Virus record (IMG/VR): IMGVR_UViG_3300028597_000007
Reading direction: 5' to 3' (one strand)
From: a virus
DNA: 64,000 nt
Numbering within the stretch: position 1 is the stretch's first letter; the number at the start of each line of letters is the position of its first letter. The position numbers and the translations under genes were made by a program. A model generated the notes under the pieces. That model worked only from the letters and a program-made list of their open reading frames with translations. It did not search any database and had not been told where the DNA came from. Positions 22,464 through 46,122 of this stretch are shown one piece after another.

Positions 22464-22952
22464 ATGAAGCAGTCATTCCATCCAGGGCCAATAGAGCCCA
22501 ACCCAGACTTCAAGATCGTCATCAATCTTGGAGAGATCATAGGTGCCTTCGACTATGACCTGGGAGACGATCGGTTTGCTACCATCGCTTCCCAGTTCAC
22601 TGGCGATACGTCGGGCTACTTGTGTCGCGGCATGATCCATTGCCTCCTGGGTATACCTGGAGGACTGTCGATCTCGGAAGCCGCTCGGTTCTTCCCCATT
22701 AACCTGCAACCATCTGCCACGATATTCCTGGAACACTTCTGGAATGCATTGGCAGCGGACATCGCCCGCATGGAAGGAATGATCAGGCAACAAAACCCTG
22801 GTCGTTCCTTCGACGCGAACCAAGTACCAACCCCAATGGTCAATGGTTACCACACCTTGACCATCTGGTACCACTGGTCTCTGGCCACACAACAACTGGA
22901 GGAACCTCTTGACTACGACGGGACTGACGAGCCCGAGGGTCGAGGGTTCTAG
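22464..22952 (+). CDS. array protein (IVINLGEIIGAF) ending in GRGF
   Basis: Tiled ORF. Confidence 0.8.
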   Translation: MKQSFHPGPIEPNPDFKIVINLGEIIGAFDYDLGDDRFATIASQFTGDTSGYLCRGMIHCLLGIPGGLSISEAARFFPINLQPSATIFLEHFWNALAADIARMEGMIRQQNPGRSFDANQVPTPMVNGYHTLTIWYHWSLATQQLEEPLDYDGTDEPEGRGF

Positions 22953-22960
22953 GAGATGCG

Positions 22961-23398
22961 ATGAAAGCAGTCGTACACTGGGACCTGTCTGAAATGATTG
23001 GGGAGGCGGACTTCGCGTTCAAGCAACACTCCCCTTTCGTGGATGGGCACGATGAAATAATCAGGGACACGCCGGTAGAGTGGAAACATCTGCTGGCTGA
23101 CCTTGCTGCGATTGCATTGCGTGACCAAGCAGCTGGCACAGACGCGCTGGCTGACTTTGTCGAGAGCAACATCGGTCGCAACTACGAGTTCTTGGGATTG
23201 TTCTTCAAGTCCCAGGCTCGACGCTGGTATAAAGAGATGACGTGGTTCACCGACTTCACTGCCCGTGATTTCGATTGGTACGTTATCGATGACGTTACAC
23301 AACTCACCCCCATGATGCTGAGAGTGGCTATCCATGGCGGGTACTATTATGAGAACCCTGACGCATGTTTGGACATTACCGAGTATCCATTGATCTAG
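22961..23398 (+). CDS. array protein (VHWDLSEMIGEA)
   Basis: RBS AGGAG. Confidence 0.8.
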   Translation: MKAVVHWDLSEMIGEADFAFKQHSPFVDGHDEIIRDTPVEWKHLLADLAAIALRDQAAGTDALADFVESNIGRNYEFLGLFFKSQARRWYKEMTWFTDFTARDFDWYVIDDVTQLTPMMLRVAIHGGYYYENPDACLDITEYPLI

Positions 23399-23940
23399 AA
23401 GAATCCATTGGAGAGATCGGCCTACTGCTGTCAGCGGTAACAGGCAACAAATTCAGCACCGAAATGACCACAATGGCATGCACACACTACAAGCACATGG
23501 CGCTTGTGTGTGCGTGTGCATTTATGATGTCGCCTGTTTCGCTGAGCTTGGCTGATCGTCACCGGGTGGTACAAGTACGCAACTCCATGGCTGAGAACAT
23601 TCAATCGGTTTATCCGATGTTCCAGCAAGAGGAATCCCGATGGGGCTATCAGGAGACCATGACCGTAGTGACTGAGTTGGCTTTCAACTTCGTCAACACG
23701 ATCCTGTTCTTCTATCCGCAACTTAAAGTAGCCCTGGGTCTGCCCCACTTGTATACATTCACACCTATCCAGATCGGAACACCTGAGAACTACTTGCCAG
23801 ATCCTCGGCAGATGGGTACCCCCCACGAGCAGAGAATGGCAGAGGCGTTCCCAGTGATCCGTGAAAGGAAGGACCCGGCCAACAGGTTGTCATTCACTCT
23901 TTGGGTGAGGCCTGGACCTAACCAAAGGCTACTGACCTAA
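23365..23940 (+). CDS. array protein (VSIDLEESIGEI)
   Basis: Overlaps its neighbours; TAATG coupling downstream. Confidence 0.75.
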   Translation: MFGHYRVSIDLEESIGEIGLLLSAVTGNKFSTEMTTMACTHYKHMALVCACAFMMSPVSLSLADRHRVVQVRNSMAENIQSVYPMFQQEESRWGYQETMTVVTELAFNFVNTILFFYPQLKVALGLPHLYTFTPIQIGTPENYLPDPRQMGTPHEQRMAEAFPVIRERKDPANRLSFTLWVRPGPNQRLLT

Positions 23941-24383
23941 TGAACCCGTATTGGAAGACCATCATGATCCTGCGATTATCCAGAGAAGATCATTTCTTCG
24001 ATCTGGGATTGGAGATTGGCAACATCGATGGTTACTGCACGGCGATCCTTGAACTTGTCTTAGAGGCAATTGCAATGGAACGCTTCAACACGCAGTACAT
24101 CCATACAGGTGCTCGTAGCGACTACTCGGTGCCGTGGAAGATTCAATTCCCCGGCACTGGTGCAGTTGAGTACCTGCAAAACTACGAACGCATCCTGTCA
24201 CGTTTTGTGTACATGACAGGCGGTAAGTTTGACACCGAGCGAATCATTGATGACCTGATGACGGTCTATGAATGGGTCGCCGATCCGATTGATCAAGAGT
24301 TCCCCGACTGGTCGATGCAGGCACCGGCCAAGATTGAGTTCACGCTGACTCCGGGGAGCTTTCAATTTGAGATAAGCAAATGA
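23940..24383 (+). CDS. array protein
   Basis: Coupled start. Confidence 0.75.
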   Translation: MNPYWKTIMILRLSREDHFFDLGLEIGNIDGYCTAILELVLEAIAMERFNTQYIHTGARSDYSVPWKIQFPGTGAVEYLQNYERILSRFVYMTGGKFDTERIIDDLMTVYEWVADPIDQEFPDWSMQAPAKIEFTLTPGSFQFEISK

Positions 24384-24808
24384 TGCGTAAAAAGAGAGTA
24401 TTGGTCATCGACCTCACTGAGGAGGTTAATGACTACGTGGGAGATTTGCCTGAGGAGTCTTGGGGACTGGACTCCGAGACTTCCGAATACGGAGGACCCG
24501 ACGAGCTGGCAATCAGTGCAGCCTGTGGGTTCTTTGGTTACATCGATCCCAACTCGCCTAATCATGACGAGGAAGAGGAATTCGAGGACATGGACAAGGC
24601 CATCGGGCATAGCTGCACGCTAGAGCCCAATGATCAATTTTGGTTTGATGTGCACCATAATCTGAATCTGTTCAAGCCGCAGCTGCTCGCGAATGGATTG
24701 TTCTACGCGACAGACATAAGCTTCAGTAACAAGCGACTGGTCATTGAAGTGTCCAACGAAATGGATATGGCGAAACATCATGATAGAATCCAACCCCCCA
24801 GAAGCTGA
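24380..24808 (+). CDS. acidic array protein (LVIDLTEEVNDY)
   Basis: Coupled start. Confidence 0.8.
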   Translation: MMRKKRVLVIDLTEEVNDYVGDLPEESWGLDSETSEYGGPDELAISAACGFFGYIDPNSPNHDEEEEFEDMDKAIGHSCTLEPNDQFWFDVHHNLNLFKPQLLANGLFYATDISFSNKRLVIEVSNEMDMAKHHDRIQPPRS

Positions 24809-25256
24809 TGAGCAATCAGCCAGAGACCCGAACAAGAAGGCATGGCAACACGAGTGCCCCCTTGAAATCGAGGTTGACCAGACCGCAGCTGTTGTAATTG
24901 TCGAGTCAGAGGTGCTGGCCGGCATCTATGACATGCTGCGTCGTAAGCGTTTTCGAATGGGTGTTCCTATGGACGCCCCGCAAAGCGCATGGCTACACAA
25001 GGTCTCCCAGGCGGTGGGTATCTGCCTCAATGACTACCACATGGAGCGTTTCTACGACGCTAACTGTTTGGCCATTGGCACCTTGCTCATGAATGAGTTG
25101 ATGGACGACCTCCGTGAAAGCATGACTTGGGTAGCCAACGTGTACTGGGAGGACGTTATCGGCTTCTCCGTAATCAGTGGCACCACAAAGGTGATGCTAC
25201 ACTTCTCTCAAGAGGATCTTGACAATGGCGGTATCATTGCGCAGCTTGGCGCCTAA
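24780..25256 (+). CDS. array protein
   Basis: Tiled ORF; start uncertain (24744 or 24780). Confidence 0.7.
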   Translation: MIESNPPEADEQSARDPNKKAWQHECPLEIEVDQTAAVVIVESEVLAGIYDMLRRKRFRMGVPMDAPQSAWLHKVSQAVGICLNDYHMERFYDANCLAIGTLLMNELMDDLRESMTWVANVYWEDVIGFSVISGTTKVMLHFSQEDLDNGGIIAQLGA

Positions 25257-25638
25257 TACCAAGATCAACCTCGTTGCCAGAATGCAAATCCAAGGACGTA
25301 CCACGTTCACGGGCTACACATTCCAGGGCGAGGTTCCAATGGCGGTTGCCGGCATGTTTGCCGGTGACCTGCGCGCTTTGGTGGCCCAGACCAAGGCGTA
25401 CTTCCGCAGTGGTTCTTCGGCCGACGAGAACAAGATCAACTACATCTTGCTCAAGCAGTCGGAGTCCACCCCGGTGTTCGTAATCCCTGAGCCACTGATC
25501 GAGTTGACCTCGGTGCAAGTGGCCGGGTCTACCGTGTACGACGTGGTGGTTCGTGATGGCATTACCGAGCAGGAGTTGCAGAACATCCTGTCCGGTAACG
25601 GTCTCAAGGACTTCTCTGTCACCGCACGACAGGTGTAG
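25225..25638 (+). CDS. conserved chimallivirus small beta-rich protein (SH3-like)
   Basis: RBS GAGGA; residue pattern resembles a gene found just upstream of the CYTH gene in phiKZ-like phages (recall). Confidence 0.65.
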   Translation: MAVSLRSLAPNTKINLVARMQIQGRTTFTGYTFQGEVPMAVAGMFAGDLRALVAQTKAYFRSGSSADENKINYILLKQSESTPVFVIPEPLIELTSVQVAGSTVYDVVVRDGITEQELQNILSGNGLKDFSVTARQV

Positions 25639-25640
25639 CC

Positions 25641-25997
25641 ATGTCCACCTACTCCGGCGTAGACGGGCTACTGCGGATAGCCCCCGGCCAACCTTTGGAT
25701 CTCACTCCGTGCCTGGAAGAGATTCACAAGGTTGGTCGGGACTACCGGGTCTTCTTTAAGGTTGGCTCTATCGAACTGGAGGATGATACCTACAGCGTCG
25801 AACAGTCGACCCAACACGTGATGTCCAGCGTGGGTGGAACCAGTGAGTCGTTTAGCTTTGAAGTAGACGACGAAGCGACACCTACGATCCGCAGCGTAGA
25901 TTTTGCGCTGGGTACCAAGAACGACCTCTACCTCTCGGCATGTGATGCGAGGGTGAGGTCGATCATCTTGGAAGATATGTACATCCTCGCCCCCTAA
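25641..25997 (+). CDS. hypothetical acidic protein
   Basis: RBS AGGTG. Confidence 0.7.
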   Translation: MSTYSGVDGLLRIAPGQPLDLTPCLEEIHKVGRDYRVFFKVGSIELEDDTYSVEQSTQHVMSSVGGTSESFSFEVDDEATPTIRSVDFALGTKNDLYLSACDARVRSIILEDMYILAP

Positions 25998-26025
25998 TTT
26001 TTTTGTCTCAAAACAGGTGCCCAGC

Positions 26026-26649
26026 ATGGCTCGCGACGTAAAACTCAATCAGCGAATGCTCATGATGCTCGAATCGTTGGACAACGAGGACGCATCCGGC
26101 AAAGCTACCCAAGAAGTCGAACACGTTTTCTACGGCAAGATCGCCGACGCCAACCAGTTGGCTGAACTGGCCAAGCAGCCGTACGTGACCAAGTTCTTGC
26201 AGGAGCAATCCCAGTGCAAGATCCTGATCAAGTCTGCTGCTGACAACCCGCCGACCCTGCGCGTGCGCCGCATCAACCGCGAGTCCTGCGTGATCACCCG
26301 TAAGGTGTTCGTGCCTGGCCAAGCTGGCATGATGGAAGACACCAAGGAATGCGGTGAAGCGCTGTACGACTTCCTCTCCCAGACCTTCGGCGAAGCGATG
26401 ACCAAAATGCGCTACGTCATCCAGCCAGAAGGTCAGAAGAAGTTGGAACTCGACGTGTTCCTCGACCGTCACGGTAATGCCTTGGGCTACGCCAAGTTCG
26501 ACTTCGAAGTGGAAAGCGCCGATGAGGCCTGTCCGCAACTGCCGCTCACCCTGACCGACCTGAAACACGTTGACCCGTACAAAGGTTCCGACGTAGATCG
26601 CGCCGCCCTGCGCGAGTTCATGCAGATGATGACTTACAAGACCATGTAA
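26026..26649 (+). CDS. CYTH-like (triphosphate tunnel) phosphatase, phiKZ gp49-like
   Basis: E-x-E start motif, LRVRR, KxRY, ELDVF and DFEV motifs; adjacent to the DNA polymerase. Confidence 0.8.
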   Translation: MARDVKLNQRMLMMLESLDNEDASGKATQEVEHVFYGKIADANQLAELAKQPYVTKFLQEQSQCKILIKSAADNPPTLRVRRINRESCVITRKVFVPGQAGMMEDTKECGEALYDFLSQTFGEAMTKMRYVIQPEGQKKLELDVFLDRHGNALGYAKFDFEVESADEACPQLPLTLTDLKHVDPYKGSDVDRAALREFMQMMTYKTM

Positions 26650-26653
26650 GTTG

Positions 26654-26683
26654 GTGGCCAGCCTTCGGGCTGGTCGCTATGCC
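26654..26683 (+). terminator. terminator hairpin followed by TATGCC
   Basis: GCCAGCC-TTCG-GGCTGGT. Confidence 0.7.
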
Positions 26684-26739
26684 GTCGTTTAGAATGAGCT
26701 GGGGACATTAAGTAGTCCCGCACACATAAGACATTTCCC

Positions 26740-27165
26740 ATGGACACACATTTCATTGGTAAAGTGGCGCTCGATGAGGTAATCGCTGACTTCCGTGATT
26801 ACCTGATTACCGAACGCGGCTTCAAAGAGTTGGCAGATGCTCTCCCCAACGAGTATCTGGCCCAAGAGTTTGAGTACATTGCAAAGGGTACAGTGAACCG
26901 TCACTACCTCAACATGCACGAACACCTGGAGCGCACCCGCGAGATCTTTACGTCGTTCAGTGATGAGACCGCCGCAGAAGCAGAAGACCTCGCCGACGAG
27001 ATGTACATCCTTCTACGCGATGAGTTTGGTCCAGGGTTCAGCAAAACCAAGGCAGTATACACGGTCAGTCGCGTCAACGACAATCTGTGCATTAATCTGT
27101 TAGCCTCTGGCGAAGCAGTCCACTACGGGATTGATCTTAAATCCCTTGCAGAACAGGTCTCCTGA
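26740..27165 (+). CDS. small acidic protein, possible array member (KVALDEVIADF)
   Basis: TGATG coupling to the polymerase. Confidence 0.75.
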   Translation: MDTHFIGKVALDEVIADFRDYLITERGFKELADALPNEYLAQEFEYIAKGTVNRHYLNMHEHLERTREIFTSFSDETAAEAEDLADEMYILLRDEFGPGFSKTKAVYTVSRVNDNLCINLLASGEAVHYGIDLKSLAEQVS

Positions 27166-29510
27166 TGGAACACTTCCTGCTGTCACCCGAGCAGTACCAG
27201 CGGGACCTGAACGTGGTCCGCACCTACATGCACGACAATGCCTTCTTCCTGACGAAGATGCGTGGCCGTGACTACGAGTACAACGTTGAGTGGATTCGCA
27301 AGACCATTGGTCGTGATGGTAAGTTCCCCATCAAGAACCCGCTCGTCACCATCATCGACAAGGATAAGAATGGTGACCGCTTCATCCGTAAGGTAGGTTA
27401 TCTCAACTACCTCAAGAACATCGTTGCCAAAGACCTCATCTGCGCCCCTTCCATGACCACCTATGTGCGTCCAGAAGTGCGCAAGTCCATGATGGGGGTT
27501 TACATCAACGGCAACATGGACCTGCGTAACGGTGCTAAGGCTGAGGCTCTCGAAGCTAAGCTGATGGCTTCCTCGTATGGTGGTAAGGTAGCCGAGCTGC
27601 TGGAGCAACCCCAAACTCCAGCTCGTGACGCAGCCCTGGCCGACTACGAACTCAAACAGGCCCAAGAGAAGAACAAGGCCGGTATTAAGAACAACGAACA
27701 GACCTCGCACAAGATCTTCAACAACGGGATCTCGGGCATGCAGACCATCGGGTCTACTCCGTTCGTTCTGGTATCCGCCCACTCCTCCCTGACATCTGGC
27801 TGTCGCTCCGCCGTGTCATACGGCAACGCCGCCATTGAACGTTTCGTTGCAGGTAGCCGTCACTACTGGTCGCCTGAAGTTGTGATTGCGCAGATACTTT
27901 CTATTTGCCGCAATACCAACTACGACAAACTGAAGAAGGTCATCGAGAAGTACAACCTGTACATCCCGACCCAGGAAGACATCATCGCCGCCATTCGTTA
28001 CTCGACCAGCCTGTATTGGTCACACGAGGAATCGATGGAAGAGATCGGTGAACTGGTTCAGACCCTGGACGGGTACGAGCGCGCTGCGTTCCTTTACACG
28101 GGTGACATGTATCACCTGCGTAAGTACAACGATGCGTTCATGAATGGTTTCCTGACCGAACTGGAAACAGTCGGCGGCGCCGATCACCCTGATCCAATCG
28201 CCGGTATCAAGAAGGTTAAAGGTGACCACAAGGCACTGGCTCTGATTCTGTGCTCTGAGGTAACTGCCGGTAAGTCGATCAAGGATATGATCGATAAGCA
28301 GGACCTGCAAGCGCTGGGCATGGTCTGCAATACCCATGCCAACATCATGGCTACCTTGGATAAGTACCATGACCTGATTGAGATCCTTTGGACTTCGCTC
28401 AACGTTCCGCCAAACATCAGCCGTACTCGTGACATTCGTCGCCGTTCGGTTGTAGGTTCCGACACTGACTCCTGTCTGTTCACTGTGCGCGAGTGGGTCA
28501 AGTGGAAGAACGGCGAAGCCTCGTTCAACAAACCATGCCAGGCTACTTGGCACTCGGTTGTGTTCTTGGCTTGCCAGGTTGTAACCCACACCCTCGCCTG
28601 TCTGTCTGCTGGCATGGGCGTGCGTGGTGAAGACGTCCTTAAGCTGGCAATGAAGAACGAATACGCCTTCTCGGCATTCGGCCTTACCAACATCGCCAAG
28701 CACTACGTTGCATCGATGATCGCTCAAGAAGGTGGCGTTTATACCAAAGCCGACTTGGAGATCAAAGGCGTTCAGTACAAGGACTCCAACTCCCCGCCAG
28801 AAATCATCGAAGAGGACAACGCGTATATCGAATCCGTCATGGATCAGATCTACGCAACTGGTCACTTTGAGATGATGCCAATCTTGAAGTCTATGGCGCA
28901 GACTGAAAAGAATGTGACTGAGTCCATCAAGAAGGGTGACACCAAGTACCTGAAGTCGGCTTACGTGCGTCCTAAGGAAGACTACAAAAAGCCAATGTCG
29001 TCAAACTACTTCCACTACCTTCTGTGGGAGAAAGCGTTCTCGCACAAGTACGGGGCCACGCCATCACTCCCGTACCGTGCTGTGAAAATCTCTGTTGATC
29101 TGCCGAACAAGACCGCCATCAAGAAGTGGGTCGACGGCATTGAAGACGACACCATGAGAAACGCTTTGTATGAGCTGTATGTGTACGGAGATGGTGGTGG
29201 TGCCGATGATGATGAGTTGGCGCCGGGTGAGATCAGTGCCAAGGAAGCGGACAGCGAGGAAACCACCGAGCAGCCCGAGGAAGCACCAAAGAGCAAAGAT
29301 GCTCCGATGAAGCCCAAGGTCAAGATCACATCGTTCCTGATGCCTCTGGACCTCGTGCAGTTGAACGGTATCCCAGAAGAGATTCTTCGGGTAGCAGACG
29401 TACGTCGTCAGACTTACTCGACGGTATCGCCCTTCTACCTGTGTGCTGAAACTCTGGGTTTGCCAATGATCAACGCCAACCTCACCACCCTCTTGTCAGA
29501 CATGCTCTAA
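27165..29510 (+). CDS. family-B DNA polymerase, catalytic half (phiKZ gp50-like)
   Basis: KIFNNGISG (motif B), SDTDS (motif C), KHY; synteny. Confidence 0.9.
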   Translation: MEHFLLSPEQYQRDLNVVRTYMHDNAFFLTKMRGRDYEYNVEWIRKTIGRDGKFPIKNPLVTIIDKDKNGDRFIRKVGYLNYLKNIVAKDLICAPSMTTYVRPEVRKSMMGVYINGNMDLRNGAKAEALEAKLMASSYGGKVAELLEQPQTPARDAALADYELKQAQEKNKAGIKNNEQTSHKIFNNGISGMQTIGSTPFVLVSAHSSLTSGCRSAVSYGNAAIERFVAGSRHYWSPEVVIAQILSICRNTNYDKLKKVIEKYNLYIPTQEDIIAAIRYSTSLYWSHEESMEEIGELVQTLDGYERAAFLYTGDMYHLRKYNDAFMNGFLTELETVGGADHPDPIAGIKKVKGDHKALALILCSEVTAGKSIKDMIDKQDLQALGMVCNTHANIMATLDKYHDLIEILWTSLNVPPNISRTRDIRRRSVVGSDTDSCLFTVREWVKWKNGEASFNKPCQATWHSVVFLACQVVTHTLACLSAGMGVRGEDVLKLAMKNEYAFSAFGLTNIAKHYVASMIAQEGGVYTKADLEIKGVQYKDSNSPPEIIEEDNAYIESVMDQIYATGHFEMMPILKSMAQTEKNVTESIKKGDTKYLKSAYVRPKEDYKKPMSSNYFHYLLWEKAFSHKYGATPSLPYRAVKISVDLPNKTAIKKWVDGIEDDTMRNALYELYVYGDGGGADDDELAPGEISAKEADSEETTEQPEEAPKSKDAPMKPKVKITSFLMPLDLVQLNGIPEEILRVADVRRQTYSTVSPFYLCAETLGLPMINANLTTLLSDML

Positions 29511-31542: not shown

Positions 31543-33540
31543 ATGTCCGTTGAAAAGAAGCAAAGCGCATCGGGTGGTAACATCATGGCAGAAGCCTTTA
31601 AAAGGGCCGGCCTTGACACCCAAGCGCAAGTGGAGCCTGCGACGTCTGCAGCGAAGCCCGCTGTGGATATCCAGGAACCTGCAGTACGACAACAGCCAGC
31701 CCAGCAACGCGAAGCTATTGTCGATCAATCTATTAACGTTAATAAGGACAGCATCACCATGAGCAACACTGATCAATACACCCAAGGTCGCCGCGACGCA
31801 AAATCGTTCAACACCCTGAACGACCTGGGCGCTCGTCGCCTGCGTCCTCTGTCGCGCTCTGCCGGCTCCGTCCGTGCCAAAGAGCTGCAGACTGCAATCG
31901 AGAAAGAACTGAAGGCCGGTCTGAAGGCTGACGGTGTTTCCGAATGGGCCGTGCAGATCATGGACGCCGCCCAGCTGAACCTGCCGACTTCGTCGGTTGT
32001 TCTGCTGATGACCGTCAAGACCTCCGACGCCGAGCACGTCGGCATGTACTCGTTCCTGATCGACGGCGCAGACATCCGTCTGACTCCGAAGGTCGACAAG
32101 GTCGATGGCCGTGCCTACGAGACCCCGATCGTCATCGGCGACATCTACAACAGCCAGGACTACATCACCCGCGCCACCGAGCTGGTCACTCAGACCCGCC
32201 AGGGCCGTGCGATCAACCTGATCGACGCCGGTGCCGTGATCCTGCCTGCCGCCTACAACATCGAAACCAACGGCGTGTACAACCTGCTGTACAAGGCCAC
32301 CCTGGCACTGTACAACACCCTGAACTACGTCGTTCAGCTCGATGACCAACCAGCCTACACCCTGGCCGGTCGTAACCAAGGCGGCGAGCAACTGGTCGGC
32401 CGTCTGAACTTCGGCGGCGAGCGTTACGTCGACGAAGTCGGCATGCCGCAGCGTCACGACGTTATCGTCGAGATGGATTCGGTCCGCAACCAGCAGAACC
32501 GCGACTTCGCCGGCGCCTCCAGCAACATCACCAAGGTTGCCGGTTACATGGAGCCGGTGTACGCGCAGCCTGACCCGCAGAACCCTGCCAACAACCAGCC
32601 GTTCTTCAACCAGATGGTGATCACCCAGATCGCCTCCGGCTTCGACGCGCAGGAAGTTGAAATGTCCCTGCTGGGCCTGGTCACTGCGACCATGGTGCAG
32701 ATCCGCAATGGCTGGGCTGACGCCTACCTGCCGCGCTTCGCCAACCAGGGCAAGGAGCTGAACTTCCGTGACGTCGGCGCCCTGGGCTTCTGCGTACCGG
32801 AAAATGCTCGTATCGACACCAAGGCTGCCAGCTTCAAGGAAAACTTCGGCAACTTCATGCGCGATTTCTTCCGCCTGAACGCCGGTGTGATCTTCGCGAT
32901 CGATATCCCAGAAGTCGGTCCTGACGCCTTCATCATGGACATCTTCCGCGCTGCTGCCTCGGGCAACGGCAACGCCATCAAGGCGCTGACCGATGCGTGC
33001 AACAACCTGACCGGTGGTATCTACGGCCAGAAAGCTGCAGCCATCGGTGGTGGCTTCCCGCTGTTCATCGATACCGGCAACCGCATCCACAACGGTTACT
33101 ACGCTTCCGAAACCGGCGAGCTGCGTGACATTCGTGATGTGGACCTGCTGGCCGTCGCCAACGTCCTGGGCAAGACCAACCCACAGGCGCTCATCGACTA
33201 CGCTGATTCGTTCGCTGCCGGCACCGCCCAAGCGCCGATCCGTATGTCCAAGCGTTTGGCCATCATCGACGACGTGCTGCAAGGTCGTCAGGTGATCACT
33301 GGCTACTCCGGCCGCTACATCATCGGCCCTGTGTTCCTGCGCGTCCTGTCGGAAGCCTGCCAAGCCTGCGGCCTGGTTGTCAACCCAGCGAACATGGTTC
33401 ACGGTCTGGGTTCGGGTCAGGTCCTGGGTGGCTACGACTACGGCGCATTCGCAGCTGGTGCTGCTGGTGCTGGCGTGTTCAACGGCGGTGGCAACACCGC
33501 GGCCAACACCGCTGCTTACGGCGGTCGTTCGGTCTGGTAA
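31543..33540 (+). CDS. chmA: chimallin, major phage nuclear shell protein (phiKZ gp54-like)
   Basis: Sits between the gp52-like gene and nvRNAP beta-prime N; 665 aa; extreme codon bias; Gly/Ala-rich C-tail; RBS AAGGAG. Confidence 0.9.
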   Translation: MSVEKKQSASGGNIMAEAFKRAGLDTQAQVEPATSAAKPAVDIQEPAVRQQPAQQREAIVDQSINVNKDSITMSNTDQYTQGRRDAKSFNTLNDLGARRLRPLSRSAGSVRAKELQTAIEKELKAGLKADGVSEWAVQIMDAAQLNLPTSSVVLLMTVKTSDAEHVGMYSFLIDGADIRLTPKVDKVDGRAYETPIVIGDIYNSQDYITRATELVTQTRQGRAINLIDAGAVILPAAYNIETNGVYNLLYKATLALYNTLNYVVQLDDQPAYTLAGRNQGGEQLVGRLNFGGERYVDEVGMPQRHDVIVEMDSVRNQQNRDFAGASSNITKVAGYMEPVYAQPDPQNPANNQPFFNQMVITQIASGFDAQEVEMSLLGLVTATMVQIRNGWADAYLPRFANQGKELNFRDVGALGFCVPENARIDTKAASFKENFGNFMRDFFRLNAGVIFAIDIPEVGPDAFIMDIFRAAASGNGNAIKALTDACNNLTGGIYGQKAAAIGGGFPLFIDTGNRIHNGYYASETGELRDIRDVDLLAVANVLGKTNPQALIDYADSFAAGTAQAPIRMSKRLAIIDDVLQGRQVITGYSGRYIIGPVFLRVLSEACQACGLVVNPANMVHGLGSGQVLGGYDYGAFAAGAAGAGVFNGGGNTAANTAAYGGRSVW

Positions 33541-33791: not shown

Positions 33792-35300
33792 GTGGGACTA
33801 TATGCCTACGTTGTTGACCATAAGGAGATCCTCCAGACAATGGAAGAGCCTCCGATGGTGGTCAATGATCTCAACTTGGACTTCGGTACCAAAGAGGGCA
33901 AAGACCAGCTGGCCATGTACCTGTCGTTTCAATTCGACGGTGACGTGATTCCTGCGGTCCCAACCTGTCTGGGTGGCCACATTGGCGGTGAGGATAAGCT
34001 CGGCGTCAAGTGCAAGATCTGTGACACCCGTGTAGCCAACCTGGTTGATCGTGCAGTAGACCAAGGGGTATGGATTCGTCCGCCGGAAGGTGTGAAGGGA
34101 TTCATCAACCCTGAAGTCTGGAACGTGCTATCGCCACGGCTGACCCCGCTCAAGTCGTTCTCGATGATGAGCTGGGTGTGTGACCCCAACTACAGCGAAA
34201 CGCTGCCAGCGTACCAAGGCGTGCTCGAAGAGTACAAGAAGGTGCACAAGCGTGGTATGAACTACGTGCTGGAAAACTTCGATGAGGTAATCCGCTTCAT
34301 CATCACATCGAAGCTCTGTAGTAAGCTGTCGATGCAGGACAAGGCTGACATCCAGCTCTTCCTGCTGCAGAACCGCGACAAGGTAGTTCAGCAGTATCTT
34401 CCGCTGCCGAGTTCCATCTTCGTGGTTTCTGAAAAGACAGCGATGGGTACTTACGCCGACGAAAAGACGCCGGCGTTGTTGGATGCGATCTACATGATCA
34501 CCTCCACCTACGGTTCTGCCATTGCGCTGAACCAGCGTCAACGTGAATCGCACACAGCCCGGTTCATGGCTGCGATTGGTCCGTGTTACCAGAACATCTG
34601 TACCAAGTTCATCGGTAGCAAGTATGGTCTGATCCGTCGCCAGCTGATCGGTTCGCGTCTGCACTTCACTGGTCGTGGTGTAATCACCTCCATCAGCGAT
34701 GCGCATCATTACGAAGAGATCCACGTCCCATGGGCCTTCGCAGTGCAGATCCTCGAACCACACCTGCAATCCAAGCTGATGCGTCGCGGCATGTCTGCGA
34801 ACGAAGCGTTGGAGTTCCTCGAAGACCACACGCTGCAATGGCATCCACTGCTGCGCCAACTGTTCGACGAGCTGATTGCAGAAGCTCCACCGATCGACGA
34901 CTTCCCACCAGGGATCTTCGAAGATCTGGACGAAGACCCATCGCTGCTGCGTGGCATCCCATGCCTGTTCCAGCGTAACCCTTCGTTGACCCGCCTGTCG
35001 GCACAATGCTTGCGCATTACCCGAATCAAAGACGATGTCGAGGATTACACGATCTCGGTTTCGAACATGATCCTGGTGAGCTGGAACGCCGACTACGATG
35101 GCGACGAACTGAACATGCTGCTCTGCCTCGACAAGAAGATGCTGAGCTGGTTCAACCGTTTCCGTCCACACCTGGGCATGCGTTCGCTGAGAGAGCCACG
35201 CGCACTGTCCGACAACCAGAAAATCCACGCACCAGTAGCCGCCACCTGGGCGCACTACGTGCACCACTCTGAACGTAAGGCACCCCCAAGCGTTCATTAG
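33792..35300 (+). CDS. non-virion RNA polymerase beta-prime subunit, N-terminal part (phiKZ gp55-like)
   Basis: Catalytic NADYDGD, FQRNPSL, GSRLHFTGRGVI, Zn-binding Cys residues. Confidence 0.92.
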   Translation: MGLYAYVVDHKEILQTMEEPPMVVNDLNLDFGTKEGKDQLAMYLSFQFDGDVIPAVPTCLGGHIGGEDKLGVKCKICDTRVANLVDRAVDQGVWIRPPEGVKGFINPEVWNVLSPRLTPLKSFSMMSWVCDPNYSETLPAYQGVLEEYKKVHKRGMNYVLENFDEVIRFIITSKLCSKLSMQDKADIQLFLLQNRDKVVQQYLPLPSSIFVVSEKTAMGTYADEKTPALLDAIYMITSTYGSAIALNQRQRESHTARFMAAIGPCYQNICTKFIGSKYGLIRRQLIGSRLHFTGRGVITSISDAHHYEEIHVPWAFAVQILEPHLQSKLMRRGMSANEALEFLEDHTLQWHPLLRQLFDELIAEAPPIDDFPPGIFEDLDEDPSLLRGIPCLFQRNPSLTRLSAQCLRITRIKDDVEDYTISVSNMILVSWNADYDGDELNMLLCLDKKMLSWFNRFRPHLGMRSLREPRALSDNQKIHAPVAATWAHYVHHSERKAPPSVH

Positions 35301-36551: not shown

Positions 36552-37193
36552 ATGAACCAGGTGATCTATGGAGACGAGGGCGCAATCAACGAGCTGGTGT
36601 ATGGCTCGCGAAGTGACGCCTTGATTACTGAGCTGAAGCAACAGATCAGTATTCAGAACCCAATGCTCACCGAACAAGGTCGACTGCATGCTCAGCACGC
36701 CCACCGGGTATTTGAAGAGGTATCCGGTTGGGATGTTGTCCGCGCTGCTCGTCGAGCAGTTGCAGCAGCAGAAGGCTATGTCCAGAGTAGTCAGATCGCA
36801 CTCTATGAGACGGTTGAGCAATTCCAGATGGCCCCTCCACGCCAACAGCGTTGGATCATGGCTCATCCAGAAACTCGCCGCCTGTTCCAAGACGGGCGCA
36901 TTGACGGCTACTCCGAATCTTACGTCGACATCCAGCCCGACGCCATTGGTCGTGATCATTACGATTACAGCCTGGCTATCCATGGCGTCACTCGTGGTTA
37001 CGAGTTCGTCAAGGAAGATGGTGAGGTTGAACTGATGTATGAGAATACTCAGATCAAGCGTGATCTTGCCAGCTGGGATGAACCCCTGTCGCAGCGTAAC
37101 ATTCTGGACATCGCCAGACTGCACCAAGTCCAAGACGGCTTCTGCAAAGAAGGCGCTGAAGACTTCACCAGTCGATTCGGTGGCACCATCTGA
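36552..37193 (+). CDS. conserved chimallivirus protein (phiKZ gp59-like, nuclear-import-associated Imp3)
   Basis: WIMAHP...IDGYSESY..DY pattern and synteny (recall). Confidence 0.65.
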   Translation: MNQVIYGDEGAINELVYGSRSDALITELKQQISIQNPMLTEQGRLHAQHAHRVFEEVSGWDVVRAARRAVAAAEGYVQSSQIALYETVEQFQMAPPRQQRWIMAHPETRRLFQDGRIDGYSESYVDIQPDAIGRDHYDYSLAIHGVTRGYEFVKEDGEVELMYENTQIKRDLASWDEPLSQRNILDIARLHQVQDGFCKEGAEDFTSRFGGTI

Positions 37194-37267: not shown

Positions 37268-37702
37268 ATGCCTACCAATGCCGTTGTGACGTTATCCTCC
37301 GATGGGTGGGTAACAGCGATTGACAAGAAGTGTGACCGCATTCTGATGAACGCGTTCGCCAGTGATTTCTCCCAGTCCAATATGTTTGTCGGACAGATCA
37401 CTTCCATTCAGCACATGATCTATGCCGCGGGCCAGGATGTAAACGGTGCAGGTACCACCATCGCCAACGCATTGGAGCGGCTCTACAATCGCTTCTTCGA
37501 TTCCGCTATCTTTAAGTGCACCGTCACTGCGTGGGGCGATAATAGCGGGAGATATGATTTAGCGATCCAAGGGACAGTGGCCCAAGCCGGTCGGAAGTAT
37601 GACTTCGGTCGCCAACTTTCTTCGGCTAACGGTAAGATTGTCCAGTTCCTAACCAAGACTGGGGAAGTGATATGGTCGAATCAGACGGTGACGGGGCTGT
37701 AA
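37268..37702 (+). CDS. conserved chimallivirus protein (phiKZ gp61-like)
   Basis: RBS GGAG; TLSSDGWV...SDFSQS pattern; synteny. Confidence 0.65.
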   Translation: MPTNAVVTLSSDGWVTAIDKKCDRILMNAFASDFSQSNMFVGQITSIQHMIYAAGQDVNGAGTTIANALERLYNRFFDSAIFKCTVTAWGDNSGRYDLAIQGTVAQAGRKYDFGRQLSSANGKIVQFLTKTGEVIWSNQTVTGL

Positions 37703-38007
37703 AGACTATTAAGGTGGGCGTCATTGCTCACCACCATCCCAACACTACAACTAGCCTCGTGGTCTCTGCGCTAAGGGCAATGGAGAACGTTGAGGTAGTC
37801 GAGTTGGGGGAGAAAGACATCCTCTTTACCGAAGACGGTATCCGGGCCTCCATCAAAGACCTCGTGGATAAGTTCCCCGAGTCGTCACTGCACTGCGGGC
37901 TTGAACTCATCTCGCCGTATGCGGGGATGGGTCGTCGAGGTAAAGGTGAAAAGAAACGAGAGCGTGCGCATCTGCGCAGGTTCTATGGAAGGAGGAATTC
38001 ATTTTGA
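37672..38007 (+). CDS. small protein with an Arg/Lys-rich C-terminus
   Basis: RBS GGGGAAG; fills the gap between core genes. Confidence 0.6.
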   Translation: MVESDGDGAVKTIKVGVIAHHHPNTTTSLVVSALRAMENVEVVELGEKDILFTEDGIRASIKDLVDKFPESSLHCGLELISPYAGMGRRGKGEKKRERAHLRRFYGRRNSF

Positions 38008-40700: not shown

Positions 40701-41447
40701 ATGTCTGGTGGCAACGAATCCCGTGTCAACATTCCAACCGCACTGATCGAATTCCGTCTGCGCCTCACCGCCGACAAACTTCCAGAAGGTCGTAAGAACC
40801 CGAACCTGGAAGTCAGCGTCAACAAGAAGAACGAGATCCAGATCAGCTGCAACACCGGTATCTTCGGCGCCGACAATGCCCAGGTGCGCATCGATGGCAA
40901 GCTGGGTCTGCTGGACTTCAACGCCCTGCACACCTACGTGGAGAACATCCACAAGGAAGCCGCCGGCCACAAGTACCCGCTGATCCGTCTGTACGGCCCG
41001 CGCAAGAAGCGCACCCCGCAGGATTCCGGCAAGGGTCTGGACGCAGTGCTGATCGTCGGCAAAGATGCCAACGGCGTGTGCTACATGTCCGTCATGCGCA
41101 AAGATGCCCCGCAGGTCAAGTTCGTGTTCCAGCCAGGCCGTTGGGTTGACCTGGTCGATGCCAACACCCAGCAGCCTCTGCCACTGGCCGACATCTCCAA
41201 CCTGTACTCGCAGGCCTGGGCCAAGACCTTCGCCCCTCTGGTCACCTACGCGCTGAATGTCAAGGTCTACGACTTCCGCGAAGACAACCAGCAAGGTGGC
41301 AACGGCGGCGGTAACAACTACCAGAACAACGGCGGTAGCAACAACAACTACCAGAACAACAACCGCGGCGGTGGTCAGCAACAGCAGCAACAAGCTCCTG
41401 CACCGGCCGGCGACTTCAACGGGTTCGATGACGACATCCCGCTGTAA
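40701..41447 (+). CDS. chmC: ChmC-like nucleus-associated ssDNA/RNA-binding protein (phiKZ gp67-like)
   Basis: Directly upstream of the gp68 and PicA genes; N/Q/G-rich linker; acidic FDDDIPL tail; strong codon bias. Confidence 0.7.
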   Translation: MSGGNESRVNIPTALIEFRLRLTADKLPEGRKNPNLEVSVNKKNEIQISCNTGIFGADNAQVRIDGKLGLLDFNALHTYVENIHKEAAGHKYPLIRLYGPRKKRTPQDSGKGLDAVLIVGKDANGVCYMSVMRKDAPQVKFVFQPGRWVDLVDANTQQPLPLADISNLYSQAWAKTFAPLVTYALNVKVYDFREDNQQGGNGGGNNYQNNGGSNNNYQNNNRGGGQQQQQQAPAPAGDFNGFDDDIPL

Positions 41448-41462
41448 TTGCTTTTGAAAAAA

Positions 41463-41494
41463 ACGGTGGGCCAGGAATGGTCCTCCGTTTATGC
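41463..41494 (+). terminator. imperfect terminator hairpin followed by TTTATGC
   Basis: ACGGTGGGCCA...TGGTCCTCCGT. Confidence 0.55.
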
Positions 41495-41520
41495 TGTCGT
41501 CTAGGAAATGACGATTTTTG

Positions 41521-41542
41521 AAACCTAAATTATCAAGTTGAG
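41521..41542 (+). promoter_or_regulatory. phage promoter motif AAACCTAAATTATC-N4-TGAG
   Basis: Perfect 14-mer; upstream of the gp68-picA-gp70 operon. Confidence 0.8.
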
Positions 41543-41592
41543 ATCCTCCCCAAAAGGAACTCTAGATCGACAACAAAAGGAGTCATCGCTTT

Positions 41593-43116
41593 ATGGAGAT
41601 CCAAATTGAAGGTTACTCTCCAACAGGCGCCTTCAAGCGAGTGGCTACCGTGCATAACGGTGAGTCCATTTCGTGGAACACGCAGACTTATTCCAAGCTG
41701 AAGTTCCACAATGCGGCTGTGATCTTTTCGGAGATCAATGCGCTCTGGGCTACGCTACCCATGGCAGCTCAGGACAAGATCTTCGCGGCGTACAAAGAGG
41801 TCCATCAACACCTCACTGAACCTGAGGATAATAAGCAGCAGGTCGAAAGGCTCATGGTGCTTATCGTTGAGATCTACAAGCACTACACGGCCAAAGATGC
41901 CGAGGATATCGTCAATGGGTTGAACCTGACATATCCAAGCTCGATGGCTGAGACCTACGGCGACAGTGGCGACAACGGGCGTACCCATACCCGTGCCGAC
42001 TACCATCGCCTGGTCCAACTGGCAATCCGGCTGCGCCCCATGTTGCCGGTGTTCGGCCAGTACATTCATACGTTCCTCGACCAACCGGGCTCGCAATACC
42101 GTGAGACCAGTGCGGTCAAGATCCTGAACGATACGGACGTACTGACCATGCCAGCGGTGGAGAAGTTGGTAAGTTTCATGGAGGCAACTCTGAAGAACTT
42201 CCAGCATCAGAACTCCGCCATTCTGGGAGGGAAGCTGGGTACTGCAGAAATGCCTTACTGGCTGGTCGCCAAGGCAATCTTCCGCAGGATCGCACCCGGC
42301 GAAGTACACAGCGTGGACGATGTATCTTCCATCATCACCAACGTGTACAACTTTGTGGTGAAGTCGACCCTCGACTCCATCCCCAGGAACTTTGGTGGCA
42401 CCAAAAACAAAACCCGCACCACAGAAGGTTCGAACAAAGACGAGAACGTTTCCTTGCTGGAAGCGATTCGAATCCGTGAGCAAATCTCTGGCGGGCGTAA
42501 GAAAGTGGTTGACGTGTATTCGCGTAACATCCTGTTCACAGCGCGTCGGGTAGATCCGACCGTGCCTGAGGCCATGGTGGAAGAATGCACCCGACCAGAC
42601 ATCACCAGACTGAACCGTGACGTGCATGAAGTGCAGTCGATCATGGCGCGTTGGGTAATGTCGCGAGGCCAGCCACCGTCGCACTATGACCTGCTCAAGC
42701 GCGAGCCGGTGTTCCGCTTCCTCGGGGCTGCTCAAGCCCTGCTCTGGCACTGGGGCTACCTGGAGCTGGCTGCATTGATGGATGCGGTTCCCCTGCAAGA
42801 CCTGACCATGGCTCCCTCGGCCACGCTGTGGGCACGAGAAGAGCTTAGCAAGGATCGTCTGGAACTGCTACGTGAGCGGTATCCACACGTGTCGCAACTG
42901 ACCCGCGGTAGCCAGAATCCCGATGAGGCTATCAAGGGTGTCGTGGAGAACGCAGAGCTTGCTCGCATGATCCACAGTGAAGAATGGGTCCTGGCAAAAG
43001 ACTCTCGGTTCTACGATCTCGTGAACCACAATGAGCAAGGACATCTGATCCTGTCCCCAGGCTTTAGAAACACCATCGCAGACCTGCAGCTTCAAGTATC
43101 TGCTGGTACGTGGTAA
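41593..43116 (+). CDS. non-virion RNAP fifth, sigma-like subunit (phiKZ gp68-like)
   Basis: 507 aa; TYxRADY..L..LAIRLRPMLPVFG pattern; synteny. Confidence 0.75.
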   Translation: MEIQIEGYSPTGAFKRVATVHNGESISWNTQTYSKLKFHNAAVIFSEINALWATLPMAAQDKIFAAYKEVHQHLTEPEDNKQQVERLMVLIVEIYKHYTAKDAEDIVNGLNLTYPSSMAETYGDSGDNGRTHTRADYHRLVQLAIRLRPMLPVFGQYIHTFLDQPGSQYRETSAVKILNDTDVLTMPAVEKLVSFMEATLKNFQHQNSAILGGKLGTAEMPYWLVAKAIFRRIAPGEVHSVDDVSSIITNVYNFVVKSTLDSIPRNFGGTKNKTRTTEGSNKDENVSLLEAIRIREQISGGRKKVVDVYSRNILFTARRVDPTVPEAMVEECTRPDITRLNRDVHEVQSIMARWVMSRGQPPSHYDLLKREPVFRFLGAAQALLWHWGYLELAALMDAVPLQDLTMAPSATLWAREELSKDRLELLRERYPHVSQLTRGSQNPDEAIKGVVENAELARMIHSEEWVLAKDSRFYDLVNHNEQGHLILSPGFRNTIADLQLQVSAGTW

Positions 43117-43143
43117 GCAATTTCAAATTTAGGAGTTAGGCAT

Positions 43144-44757
43144 ATGAAAACTGGCGTAAAGATTCTGAACATCCTGTTGGCCGAAGCAGTTCCATCGGTA
43201 CAGTTGTTCCACCGTCCGTGGGAAGTGAACTATCGCCCAGAGTACCTGGATGGGCTGATGGAGTCCACCAATGACGGTACCAACCTGTCGCCGGGCGCGA
43301 TCAAGCGCGTGGCTAACCAGATGCTGGTTCCTTCTGCCGCTCATACCGGGGCCGTGCAAATCGCAAACGGCTTCGATACCCAGCGCTTCACCGTGACCTT
43401 CGTCGTTGAAACTGAAAACGTCGGCGGCCGCAAGACTCAGGAGATCCTCTCCGGCTACACCGACCACATGGGCATTGGTGGTACCGATACCAACCCGATC
43501 TACAACCCAGAGATGCGCTTCTTCTTCAACCACATGGGCACGCTGCAAATCACCCAAGGTTCCGGTGCTCTGGGTTACGGCATGTTCACCTTCGGCAACG
43601 CCACCGAGATCCTGACGCCGATGATTGGCTGGGATAACCAGGAGCACGTGCCAGTGGTCAACCGCCAAGCTACCGCCATGCGTCCTCGCGACGTTCTGGC
43701 CAGCATGGGCGAAGGCGCATTCTCCGGCATGGGTATGACCACCGGCCAAAGTCAGCTGAACGGCGCCCCTGTTCTGGCCAACACTGGTTATCAATTCGGT
43801 GCCCGTGCCAAGCGTTCCAGCTTCGACAACACCGACTCGGCCGAATACCTGAGCCGCGTGTTCACTAGCGTGCGCGATGTGAGCCTGTCCAATGAGAGCG
43901 ATGCCCGTACCTACGGCACCTCCCTGCAGCAGGCTGGTGAGAACAACTACACCGCTGAGCCGCTGACCTCCAACTCGGCCATGATGCTGCTCCTACAGCG
44001 CCGTAGCCAGTACCAGTCCGAGTGGTCCGTAACCCTGGGTGAGCTGTGCCAGATTGACCCAACCATCGCTCAGCGTATCCAACCGATCCGCATGAAGCGC
44101 GACTATGTTCACACCATGGCCGCTATGATGGGTAACACCGACGGCTGGGGCGAAACCAGCAATGAGTCCCAAGTGGCTCAGCTGGCTACCATGATCATGC
44201 CGAATGCCATGGCGAAGTTTGCTCTGGGTATGCTGCACTTCATCGCACACACCGACACCCTCGATGGCTCTGTCGACCTGCGCATCATGAACGCAGCTGG
44301 TGTGGCTCAAGGTATCGATCCTAAGCCGATCATCAACATGATCCGTCACCACCTGATCTACGAAGTATATCCGACTCTCACCAAGCAAGGTGCGATTAAG
44401 CTGTACATCGAAGCGAACATCTCGCTGAACCGGATCTCGAACGTGATCGTGTCGGTCAACGGCGGTGAGAAGAAGCCGTTCCCAATCGCGACCTACTGCT
44501 CGGCCCTGTATTCGCCAAACCTTGCACCGAACGTGCAGCGTCTGGAGTCTCTGGCATCCGACCTCAGTGTCGTATCGGCGCAGCTCACTGCGGCGGCAAT
44601 CAACCATGGTCCAGGCATCATCCGTCCAGATGGTGGCCAGTTCCACAATATGAACTACGGTGGGAGCAGCATTGCCGCTACTCCGATCGCTGATCTCAAC
44701 GTTAATCTGTCGGGCCAGGGCGGCGTCCCAGGCACTGGCAATGGTCGTGGCTTCTAA
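43144..44757 (+). CDS. picA: PicA/Imp1 phage-nucleus protein import factor (phiKZ gp69-like)
   Basis: Between the gp68-like and gp70-like genes; IANGFDTQRF, SGYTDHMG and FFFN motifs (recall). Confidence 0.75.
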   Translation: MKTGVKILNILLAEAVPSVQLFHRPWEVNYRPEYLDGLMESTNDGTNLSPGAIKRVANQMLVPSAAHTGAVQIANGFDTQRFTVTFVVETENVGGRKTQEILSGYTDHMGIGGTDTNPIYNPEMRFFFNHMGTLQITQGSGALGYGMFTFGNATEILTPMIGWDNQEHVPVVNRQATAMRPRDVLASMGEGAFSGMGMTTGQSQLNGAPVLANTGYQFGARAKRSSFDNTDSAEYLSRVFTSVRDVSLSNESDARTYGTSLQQAGENNYTAEPLTSNSAMMLLLQRRSQYQSEWSVTLGELCQIDPTIAQRIQPIRMKRDYVHTMAAMMGNTDGWGETSNESQVAQLATMIMPNAMAKFALGMLHFIAHTDTLDGSVDLRIMNAAGVAQGIDPKPIINMIRHHLIYEVYPTLTKQGAIKLYIEANISLNRISNVIVSVNGGEKKPFPIATYCSALYSPNLAPNVQRLESLASDLSVVSAQLTAAAINHGPGIIRPDGGQFHNMNYGGSSIAATPIADLNVNLSGQGGVPGTGNGRGF

Positions 44758-44766
44758 GGGGTAACC

Positions 44767-46122
44767 ATGAACGCAAAGGAAAAAACACTCAGCTTCTTGA
44801 CCAGCATCCTCGTCTCGTTGGGTGCTTCGGTCAAGGGTCGAGCGGTGGTGATTGAAACCGAAGACGGTGAAGATCCCATCGTGATCGATGGCAAGACGCT
44901 GGTCATGCCTACCGATGAAACGCTCAAGCTCTCCAACTGGGATACGGAGATTCCGTTCTTCCCACTCTGCGAGAGCATCCTGCGCGGTGAATCTGAAGTT
45001 CAGCAAGAGCTGCTCGACATGATTCGCAGCGCCGTCAACATCCGCCTGGCCTCGCTTGTCTGGCAAATGTTCAAAGTAGCGAACTCCGACGAGTGCAAGG
45101 CTAACAAGCTCAGTCCAGAACAGGCAGAGTTCCTGCCTTGTCTGCCTGGCTTCGATGCCGAGATGGTCAAACGCATCGGTAAGGTAGTGCTTGGCGTAGA
45201 TCCGTCCGAGTACAAGTCCAGCCTGGTTCACATGAACCTCAAGCGCCGCGCCAAGATCAATGGCAAGGCGTACGATCGTGCATGTCTGGTTCGCTTCCCT
45301 CTGGCCGAGATGGAACGCAAGGAGAAGCCTTACAGCGCCGACCTGCGTGTCAAGGACATGGATGCACTGACCAACCTGCTGGACTACGTGCTGCCTAACT
45401 GGCAGGTGGAGAACACCTACAGCCGTGGCACCGATAGCCAGGTCGCCCCGTACTTCGTGGCAAGCCTGCTGGCCTACCAGAACATCAATGCCCGTATCAC
45501 TGAGCTGGCCAAGCGCTTCGAACCAACCTTCCCGATCTTCGGGACGCTGGTCAACGAAGATGACTGGGTCGAGTGCATGGATGATCTGTCGCGCATGCGC
45601 GACAGCATGCCGAACCTGCCGGGCAACGATGGTAAGGTTGTGCGCGGTCAGGCCGATGCTCCGATCATCGACGATCCAAAGCCTGCTCGTGGCGTACAGA
45701 TGCCAACTCCAAGCGCAGCTCCTCAGCGTCAGCCGGGTAGCCTGCCATGGGAAGATCAACCGCAGCAAGAGCAGCGCCCGGTCGAACGTCGTGTGGTGGA
45801 CGATGAGGCTGTCGAGTACAAGCCGCGTCAACAACCGCAGTACGGCAACCCAGGTCACATCCCGGTGCATCAGCCAGTGCACACTGGTGGTCCGAACGGC
45901 TATGGTAACCAGAACCATCAGCCAAGCTTCGCCGAACTGCAGCGCCAACGTCAGCAAGGCCACTACGGCTACGCTACCGTGAACACGCAGCCAGAAGTTG
46001 GCGGTAGTCCGTTCAGCAGCAGTGCACAACCAGGTTCCACGACTAACGTGGGTAACTACAACGTCAGCTACACGACCGCGAACAACGGGTATAGCACCCA
46101 GCCTCAAGGTCGGGGCTACTAA
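44767..46122 (+). CDS. conserved chimallivirus protein (phiKZ gp70-like) with a Q/P/N/G/Y low-complexity C-terminus
   Basis: Synteny; FFPLCESILRGES pattern. Confidence 0.7.
   Translation: MNAKEKTLSFLTSILVSLGASVKGRAVVIETEDGEDPIVIDGKTLVMPTDETLKLSNWDTEIPFFPLCESILRGESEVQQELLDMIRSAVNIRLASLVWQMFKVANSDECKANKLSPEQAEFLPCLPGFDAEMVKRIGKVVLGVDPSEYKSSLVHMNLKRRAKINGKAYDRACLVRFPLAEMERKEKPYSADLRVKDMDALTNLLDYVLPNWQVENTYSRGTDSQVAPYFVASLLAYQNINARITELAKRFEPTFPIFGTLVNEDDWVECMDDLSRMRDSMPNLPGNDGKVVRGQADAPIIDDPKPARGVQMPTPSAAPQRQPGSLPWEDQPQQEQRPVERRVVDDEAVEYKPRQQPQYGNPGHIPVHQPVHTGGPNGYGNQNHQPSFAELQRQRQQGHYGYATVNTQPEVGGSPFSSSAQPGSTTNVGNYNVSYTTANNGYSTQPQGRGY

Follow-up and report, generated by a model that had tools for sequence, protein, structure and literature searches.

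Chimallin (ChmA), the major nuclear shell protein of the nucleus-forming jumbo phages (chimalliviruses), assembles through docking of segments at both its termini, the last ten residues making up C-terminal segment 2 (CTS2), which in 201phi2-1 docks on the neighbouring protomer (bioRxiv 10.1101/2022.02.14.480162). Selective protein import needs PicA (also called Imp1), which forms puncta at the shell, as seen in experiments on phiKZ, PhiPA3 and Goslar (PMC11087766), and in phiKZ Imp6 binds Imp1 directly (bioRxiv 10.1101/2024.03.27.586873). In PhiPA3, both gp63 (PicA) and gp64 are seen at the nuclear shell, and both are recovered in pull-downs of ChmB (PMC10643120). Phage-nucleus biology has yet to explain how PicA and the other accessory proteins are retained in or on the chimallin lattice; we found no published structure or anchoring element for PicA or gp70 and, in the literature searched, no description of a tail motif on either. 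Here we describe such a tail motif in a stretch of 64,000 nucleotides (the window) of IMG/VR record IMGVR_UViG_3300028597_000007, which belongs to a contig of 140,672 bp from an uncultivated chimallivirus. The PicA homolog, a gp70-like protein and a small third protein encoded in the window all end in the same tip, GRG[F/Y].

The PicA/Imp1 homolog (537 amino acids; positions 43144-44757, plus strand) was assigned by its match to phrog_3141 (E=4.8e-62) and by the gene order gp66-ChmC-gp68-PicA-gp70. Directly downstream of it, as also in phiKZ, PhiPA3, 201phi2-1, Goslar and other phages, lies the gene of a 451-residue protein (44767-46122, plus strand; phrog_3520, E=7.7e-68) that resembles gp70 of phiKZ and gp64 of PhiPA3. 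The third carrier, known from its translation, is a clade-specific protein of 162 residues (22464-22952, plus strand). A preliminary description of the window had reported the ends of these proteins, and the translations agree with it to the letter: ...GTGNGRGF for PicA, ...QPQGRGY for the gp70-like protein, ...EPEGRGF for the small protein and ...YGGRSVW for chimallin. The flexible linkers that it placed before the tips are likewise borne out by the low AlphaFold2 confidence (predicted local distance difference test, pLDDT) of the PicA and small-protein tails and by the low complexity of the gp70-like linker. PicA is folded over residues ~1-490, followed by a disordered G/P/N/S-rich tail (~490-533; nucleotides ~44611-44742) and the tip GRGF (44743-44754); its AlphaFold2 monomer, built with 145 sequences, has a pLDDT of 88.6 and a predicted template modelling score of 0.86, with residues 490-537 at pLDDT 43-57. 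The gp70-like protein has a folded part (~1-290), a Q/P/G/N/Y-rich low-complexity linker of ~160 amino acids (nucleotides ~45634-46107) and the tip GRGY (46108-46119). The small protein consists of an alpha/beta domain (~16-140), an acidic linker (143-158; nucleotides ~22890-22937) and the tip GRGF (22938-22949); its AlphaFold2 model has a pLDDT of 72, with the 20-residue tail (143-162) below 50.

The sharing of the tip is not accidental. GRG[FY] ends were found in 3 of the 441 stop-to-stop frames of at least 60 codons in the window and in no other frame on the whole contig. Chance had been judged unlikely before on a guess of ~95 proteins; gene calling on the contig gives 143, among which 0.003 GRG[FY] ends are expected, and the probability of three or more is ~4e-9. 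When any tip common to at least three of 143 proteins was allowed for, with positions -4 to -2 matched exactly and -1 by residue class, 195 of 300,000 simulations (6.5e-4) produced one; a looser criterion, in which all four positions were compared in a reduced alphabet, yielded 0.05. Chance is thus ruled out by the probability of ~4e-9 and the simulated 6.5e-4. The tip is also confined to its carriers: in a six-frame scan of three ~230-kb IMG/VR relatives (G001-G003, of which G002 is complete with terminal repeats), the substantial open reading frames (ORFs) that fit the relaxed pattern [GSLA][RLIKVM]G[FYW]-stop belonged to the same three ortholog groups only, the one extra in some of these genomes being a short frame on the opposite strand.

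Across orthologs the tip is kept at 45-90% identity while the linkers before it diverge; conservation in orthologs was one of the checks that the preliminary description had named. PicA orthologs at 50-90% identity end in GRGF, SRGF, GLGF or GIGF, with the terminal GF invariant and with an R-to-L switch having occurred several times within this clade. GRG[FY] closes every one of the 13 gp70-like orthologs (45-84% identity), and pairwise identity in the gp70 family is 88% in the last four columns versus 22% in the preceding 40. The six orthologs of the small protein end in GRGF, GRGF, LLGF, LLGF, SRGF and ALGF, again with an invariant final GF. Descent of the tips from one another by paralogy or gene conversion was ruled out, since alignment of the PicA and gp70 profiles with hhalign covers the last six residues only and the codons differ. 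Tip codons vary among genes and genomes; in G002, for example, one gene spells Ser-Arg as TCC AGG and the other as AGC CGC. Such variation speaks for selection at the level of the peptide and against a recent exchange of DNA. Together these comparisons support the view that the tip behaves as a selected short linear motif common to unrelated proteins.

The hydrophobic end of PicA is not confined to this clade. A tblastn search with PicA matched 128 chimallivirus records, including PhiPA3 063 and Goslar 174, and identity to homologs in jumbo phages of Xanthomonas, Burkholderia, Pseudomonas, Erwinia and others is 21-26%. Among 150 representatives of 1052 PicA homolog clusters, the last residue is I, L, V, F, Y, M or W in 137 (91%), against a background of 33% (p=3e-51); S, G, T, A and N are enriched at -2 and -3, and no preference for hydrophobic residues is seen at -4 to -8. 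Because the hydrophobic ends are this frequent and the positions -4 to -8 are not hydrophobic, a hydrophobic last residue is a feature of the PicA family.

PicA and gp70 tips, moreover, match each other within a phage. We compared the last 2-5 residues by BLOSUM62 within the same genome and in shuffled genomes, in a panel of 24 genomes made up of the window, its context and 22 others taken from IMG/VR or from records of deposited phages. The tips match better within than across phages (p=2e-5 to 6e-5); the match persists without the window (p=4e-5) and in 16 thinned lineages without the window (6e-5 to 3e-4). The tips of ChmC, used as a control in the same test, gave no significant signal (p>0.5). 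Matched pairs, with PicA named first, occur in several independent lineages: LGLL and LGLL in PhiPA3, LGLL and MGLI in 201phi2-1, GLL and SLL in Noxifer, SGLL and GGVL in LucasX, GNF and NRF in Goslar, WKL and YRL in FLC9, DLF and DLF in JM-2012, and SVI and GVV in IMG/VR contig L046, beside GRGF and GRGY in this window. On the sequence comparisons, then, GRG[F/Y] represents locally a feature found throughout the PicA family and, in many lineages, in gp70 as well.

The tip of the small protein, too, follows that of PicA. Where the window has GRGF on both, with GRGY on the gp70-like protein, G001 has GLGF on PicA, LLGF on the small protein and GRGY on the gp70-like protein; G002 has SRGF, SRGF and GRGY, and G003 GLGF, ALGF and GRGF in the same order. 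The small-protein tip thus tracks PicA at -3 (R or L), and in G002 also at -4, in different codons, and gp70 stays at GRG. Since its tip follows the variant of PicA, the small protein probably binds where PicA does, in the role of an adaptor, a competitor or a regulator. It has no family or match in Pfam, PHROG or INPHARED and no detectable relatives outside the clade, and a search of BFVD gave weak matches only (E>=0.012), mostly to uncharacterised chimallivirus proteins. Paralogy within the 'array' at ~21.5-27 kb, of which the preliminary description had called it a member, was rejected: blastp finds no similarity of the small protein to its neighbours, and no Pfam families were found. In PhiPA3 we found no third carrier of LGLL beyond gp63 and gp64; other G[LIVM][LIVM] ends there are short or doubtful frames, and the count of such ends in PhiPA3 DNA equals that of its control.

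A tip that is conserved, restricted to three groups per genome, written in different codons and co-varying between its carriers implies a common binding partner. The earlier proposal of a motif that docks proteins on the shell or a common hub stands in this part; its hint at an analogy with chimallin's own tail fails for PicA, whose tip is not significantly similar to that of ChmA within genomes (p=0.13-0.70), and is marginal for gp70 (p=0.02-0.05). The shell is a plausible target because PhiPA3 gp63 and gp64 localise there and co-purify with ChmB. We favour, as the probable though by no means certain explanation, a flexibly tethered C-terminal docking peptide whose receptor is encoded by the phage, is common to the carriers, co-evolves with the tips and lies at the shell or in the import complex. 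Each carrier consists of a folded domain, a disordered tether and a tip of 4-6 residues with an aromatic or hydrophobic end and a free carboxylate, and GRG[F/Y]-COOH would be the local form of this peptide. Most likely the tip would insert into a pocket of that receptor, and insertion would keep PicA, the gp70-like protein and, in this clade, one small extra protein together at a single site of the shell or import complex. That the tip docks into a pocket, what the receptor is and what the docking does are what we infer from these patterns. A bolder version, which we put forward tentatively and regard as possible but on balance doubtful, is a lineage-specific C-terminal 'address code', in which a tethered tip of 3-6 residues would plug PicA, gp70 and occasional extras into a dedicated socket in the chimallin lattice or the import pore, with receptor and tips co-evolving.

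Several results weigh against a common docking site. About half of the sampled lineages have no match between PicA and gp70 (RAY, SA002, SNUABM48, Eowyn, PhiEaH1, Totoro, RSF1, Xoo-sp14 and several Vibrio phages), and the usual gp70 end in these is Arg, either last or followed by an aromatic residue. The co-variation of PicA with the small protein comes from four genomes and perhaps two or three independent changes. In the same genomes gp70 keeps GRG while PicA switches from R to L, so that the two may not use an identical site. The phiKZ Imp1 failed to pull down gp70 in Escherichia coli (bioRxiv 10.1101/2024.03.27.586873), so that direct pairing of PicA with gp70 is not what the shared tip reflects. 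The AlphaFold2 monomer of PicA leaves the tip undocked, with residues 525-537 below pLDDT 50. A search for the receptor by positions that track the R/L switch gave chance-level matches only, in a scan without power: in 187 four-genome alignments, 544 columns track the switch, which is the rate of the other incongruent split. Five changes from an acidic to another residue in genes of the window track it, including E437A in gp68, in these four genomes only.

Other searches for structural relatives and partners were negative in their scope. No relatives with solved structures were found in PDB for PicA or gp70, and the PicA model has no match among PDB folds. A PDZ-type ligand was rejected: the pattern [S/T]-x-hydrophobic-COOH calls for S or T at -2, where GRGF has R, and a search with PDZ_2 (PF13180; the single PDZ model searched) came back empty for the contig and for G002, the complete relative, with a positive control in 14 of 14 genomes.

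A further pattern concerns the disordered tails before the tips. Within genomes, the last 60 residues without the tip co-vary in amino-acid composition between ChmA and gp70 (p<=5e-5), ChmA and PicA (p~1e-3) and PicA and gp70 (p~5e-4), and permutation shows no such co-variation for ChmC or for the folded parts. Matched tails are R/D-rich in RSF1 and Xoo-sp14 and G/W/R-rich in LucasX and FLC9; the tails used in the window are 33400-33540 (chimallin), 44611-44742 (PicA) and 45634-46107 (gp70-like), and the panel loci are L001-L021. As the compositions co-vary, this suggests that the chimallin, PicA and gp70 tails share an environment at the shell. The tips and their low-complexity tethers might then act as 'stickers' in a fuzzy or condensate-like shell layer, similar to the gel of FG-nucleoporins, with a shared interaction grammar and no single pocket. 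We consider this unlikely: the signal sits at the extreme C-terminus, where 91% of PicA homologs are hydrophobic, in contrast to positions -4 to -8, conservation of the tip greatly exceeds that of the linker, the small protein keeps the tip after a short acidic linker that lacks such a grammar, and the ChmC tails do not co-vary with the others. Somewhat more doubtful still is the idea that the tails mimic CTS2 of chimallin and plug into the chimallin pocket meant for the tail of a neighbour. It draws on the facts that the extreme C-terminus of chimallin is itself a docking segment with an aromatic end after a G-rich linker, that chimallin ends in this clade (GGRSVW in the window, AGRGRW and PGGRW in relatives) are loosely like GRGF, and that ChmA and gp70 are linked by the marginal tip similarity and by tail composition. 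The absence of a significant ChmA-PicA tip similarity, however, speaks against it, as do 201phi2-1 and PhiPA3, in which CTS2 was defined and in which chimallin ends in ...SSFY and ...GSGFY, plainly unlike the ...LGLL and ...LGLL of PicA and the ...MGLI and ...LGLL of gp126 and gp64.

Two more readings were weighed. The tail could dock back on its own protein, giving auto-inhibition of PicA or tail-swapped oligomers, with the other carriers competing for the site; chimallin does assemble by tail swapping (bioRxiv 10.1101/2022.02.14.480162) and PicA forms discrete puncta (PMC12908238), but the confident AlphaFold2 monomer leaves the PicA tail undocked, which is weak negative evidence, and we hold this reading to be improbable. 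The tips might, alternatively, be read by a host factor, either a protease or adaptor for hydrophobic C-termini, which would make them degrons, or a chaperone, so that differences between lineages would follow the host. A hydrophobic C-terminus is a typical signal for the proteolysis systems of bacteria, and the tips do differ between phages of different host genera. Phages of the single genus Pseudomonas, however, also differ (GLL in PhiPA3, 201phi2-1 and Noxifer, QVL/RLL in phiKZ, KFKF/RRRY in DT01), PicA has switched from R to L several times within this one clade, and the tip is common to just two or three proteins per phage; a host reader is the least probable of the explanations considered.

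The conserved gene block around PicA and the gp70-like protein is complete, with the order SbcD-gp66-ChmC-gp68-PicA-gp70-nvRNAP the same in the window, phiKZ, PhiPA3, 201phi2-1, Goslar, LucasX and RAY. A megablast search of the region against known deposited phages gave no match. Chimallin (31543-33540, plus strand), a candidate for the receptor, was assigned by phrog_4795 'nuclear shell protein' (E=3.2e-68), and the nvRNAP beta' subunit (33792-35300) and the gp68-like protein (41593-43116) are further members of the block. A homolog of the import factor Imp3 (phiKZ gp59; 36552-37193, plus strand; BLASTP 34% identity, E=7e-25, aligned to the C-terminus) is a candidate partner; in the gene list the SbcD-like and gp66-like proteins of the block come after it. 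The Imp3 homolog carries at its very C-terminus a conserved element, E-D-[F/P]-T-S-x-x-G-x-x-[I/L], also seen in phiKZ, 201phi2-1, PhiPA3, Goslar, Noxifer and the clade relatives, which would be a further terminal motif of the import gene block. The second candidate partner, a ChmC/Imp6 homolog at the position of phiKZ gp67 (40701-41447, plus strand; assigned by synteny and C-terminal comparison), ends in an acidic SSB-like tip, ...GFDDDIPL, after an N/G/Q-rich linker. Similar ChmC tips are found in many chimalliviruses, among them PhiPA3 (DDEIPNF), LucasX (DDDIPM), RAY (ADDLPF), SA002 (DESIPF) and DT01 (DDDVPL); the SSB-like tip is absent in Goslar, 201phi2-1 and several Vibrio phages and does not co-vary with the PicA and gp70 tips.

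Some further ends and tails deserve mention. A very basic ORF of 111 amino acids (37672-38007, plus strand) ends in ...RRFYGRRNSF, with ...YGRGNSF, ...YGKRNSF and ...YGRGNW in relatives; this end of G/R plus an aromatic residue resembles the clade chimallin tips GGRSVW and AGRGRW and lies outside the strict tip pattern. The LucasX chimallin (L008:992-2935) has an internal GNGRGF in its C-terminal arm, and the RSF1 PicA (L010:3464-4912) ends in ...QGRGFNY. Within the gp70-like linker, islands conserved at 45-84% identity (LPWE, VEY-x-PRQ, P-x-GYG, TFAELQ, VGGSPF and Y-x-V-x-Y) are possibly further linear motifs. In Enterobacterales phages the last residue of the gp70-like protein is Arg, or an aromatic residue preceded by Arg (FQFGR, FVQGR, FTFVR, HRRW, GWRR, RRRW; loci RAY L009, SNUABM48 L017, SA002 L021, Eowyn L016, PhiEaH1 L121 and Totoro L122), ends that differ from those of PicA (NVF, NVL, NVM and others), and gp70 tips seem, from their sequences, to fall into two classes.

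The shared, co-varying tip offers a concrete and cheaply testable hypothesis for retention at the shell. A fluorescent tag at the C-terminus of a carrier would cover the free carboxylate and could change where the protein localises. The small clade-specific carrier suggests that new proteins can join the same site by gaining a tip. Should the address code hold, the anchoring of the importer would be explained, the code might add to the species specificity of nuclear shells, and a portable tag would be at hand to send any protein to the surface of the phage nucleus.

Among known systems, chimallin's NTS, CTS1 and CTS2 (Laughlin et al. 2022; bioRxiv 10.1101/2022.02.14.480162) resemble the tip in being terminal segments, with the aromatic end after a flexible G-rich linker; CTS2 docks on another shell subunit, and for GRG[F/Y] docking is our proposal. 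Unlike these segments, GRG[F/Y] stands on accessory proteins, and its sequence does not track the tip of chimallin (for PicA the similarity is not significant). The import system of PicA/Imp1, Imp3 and Imp6 supplies two of the three carriers from its gene block, PicA being its core factor. The published work on it describes recognition of cargo through folded surfaces of PicA, with no terminal signal used by the cargo (PMC11087766; bioRxiv 10.1101/2024.03.27.586873), and mentions neither PicA's own tail nor the tip shared with gp70. The SSB tip (D-D-D-I-P-F), clamp-binding motifs and PDZ-type motifs are alike in that a pocket reads the last hydrophobic or aromatic residue and the carboxylate at the end of a disordered tether. 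The SSB tip, however, is one protein's tag for many partners, whereas GRG[F/Y] is one tag on several proteins; GRGF is basic and glycine-rich where the SSB tip is acidic, it does not have the S/T that class I PDZ ligands carry at -2, and the SSB-like tip of the ChmC homolog (...DDDIPL) is a motif separate from it. The cargo-loading peptides of encapsulins and the encapsulation peptides of microcompartments are found, as GRG[F/Y] is, as the same terminal peptide on unrelated proteins after a flexible linker, and they address their carriers to one shell site, a likeness that would be one of function. Chimallin, in contrast, has neither the HK97 fold nor that of bacterial microcompartment shell proteins, the carriers here are shell-associated and not lumenal cargo, and the motif varies by lineage. 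By analogy, the best reading is that the tip is closest in function to the tail segments of chimallin and to the shell-targeting peptides of encapsulins.

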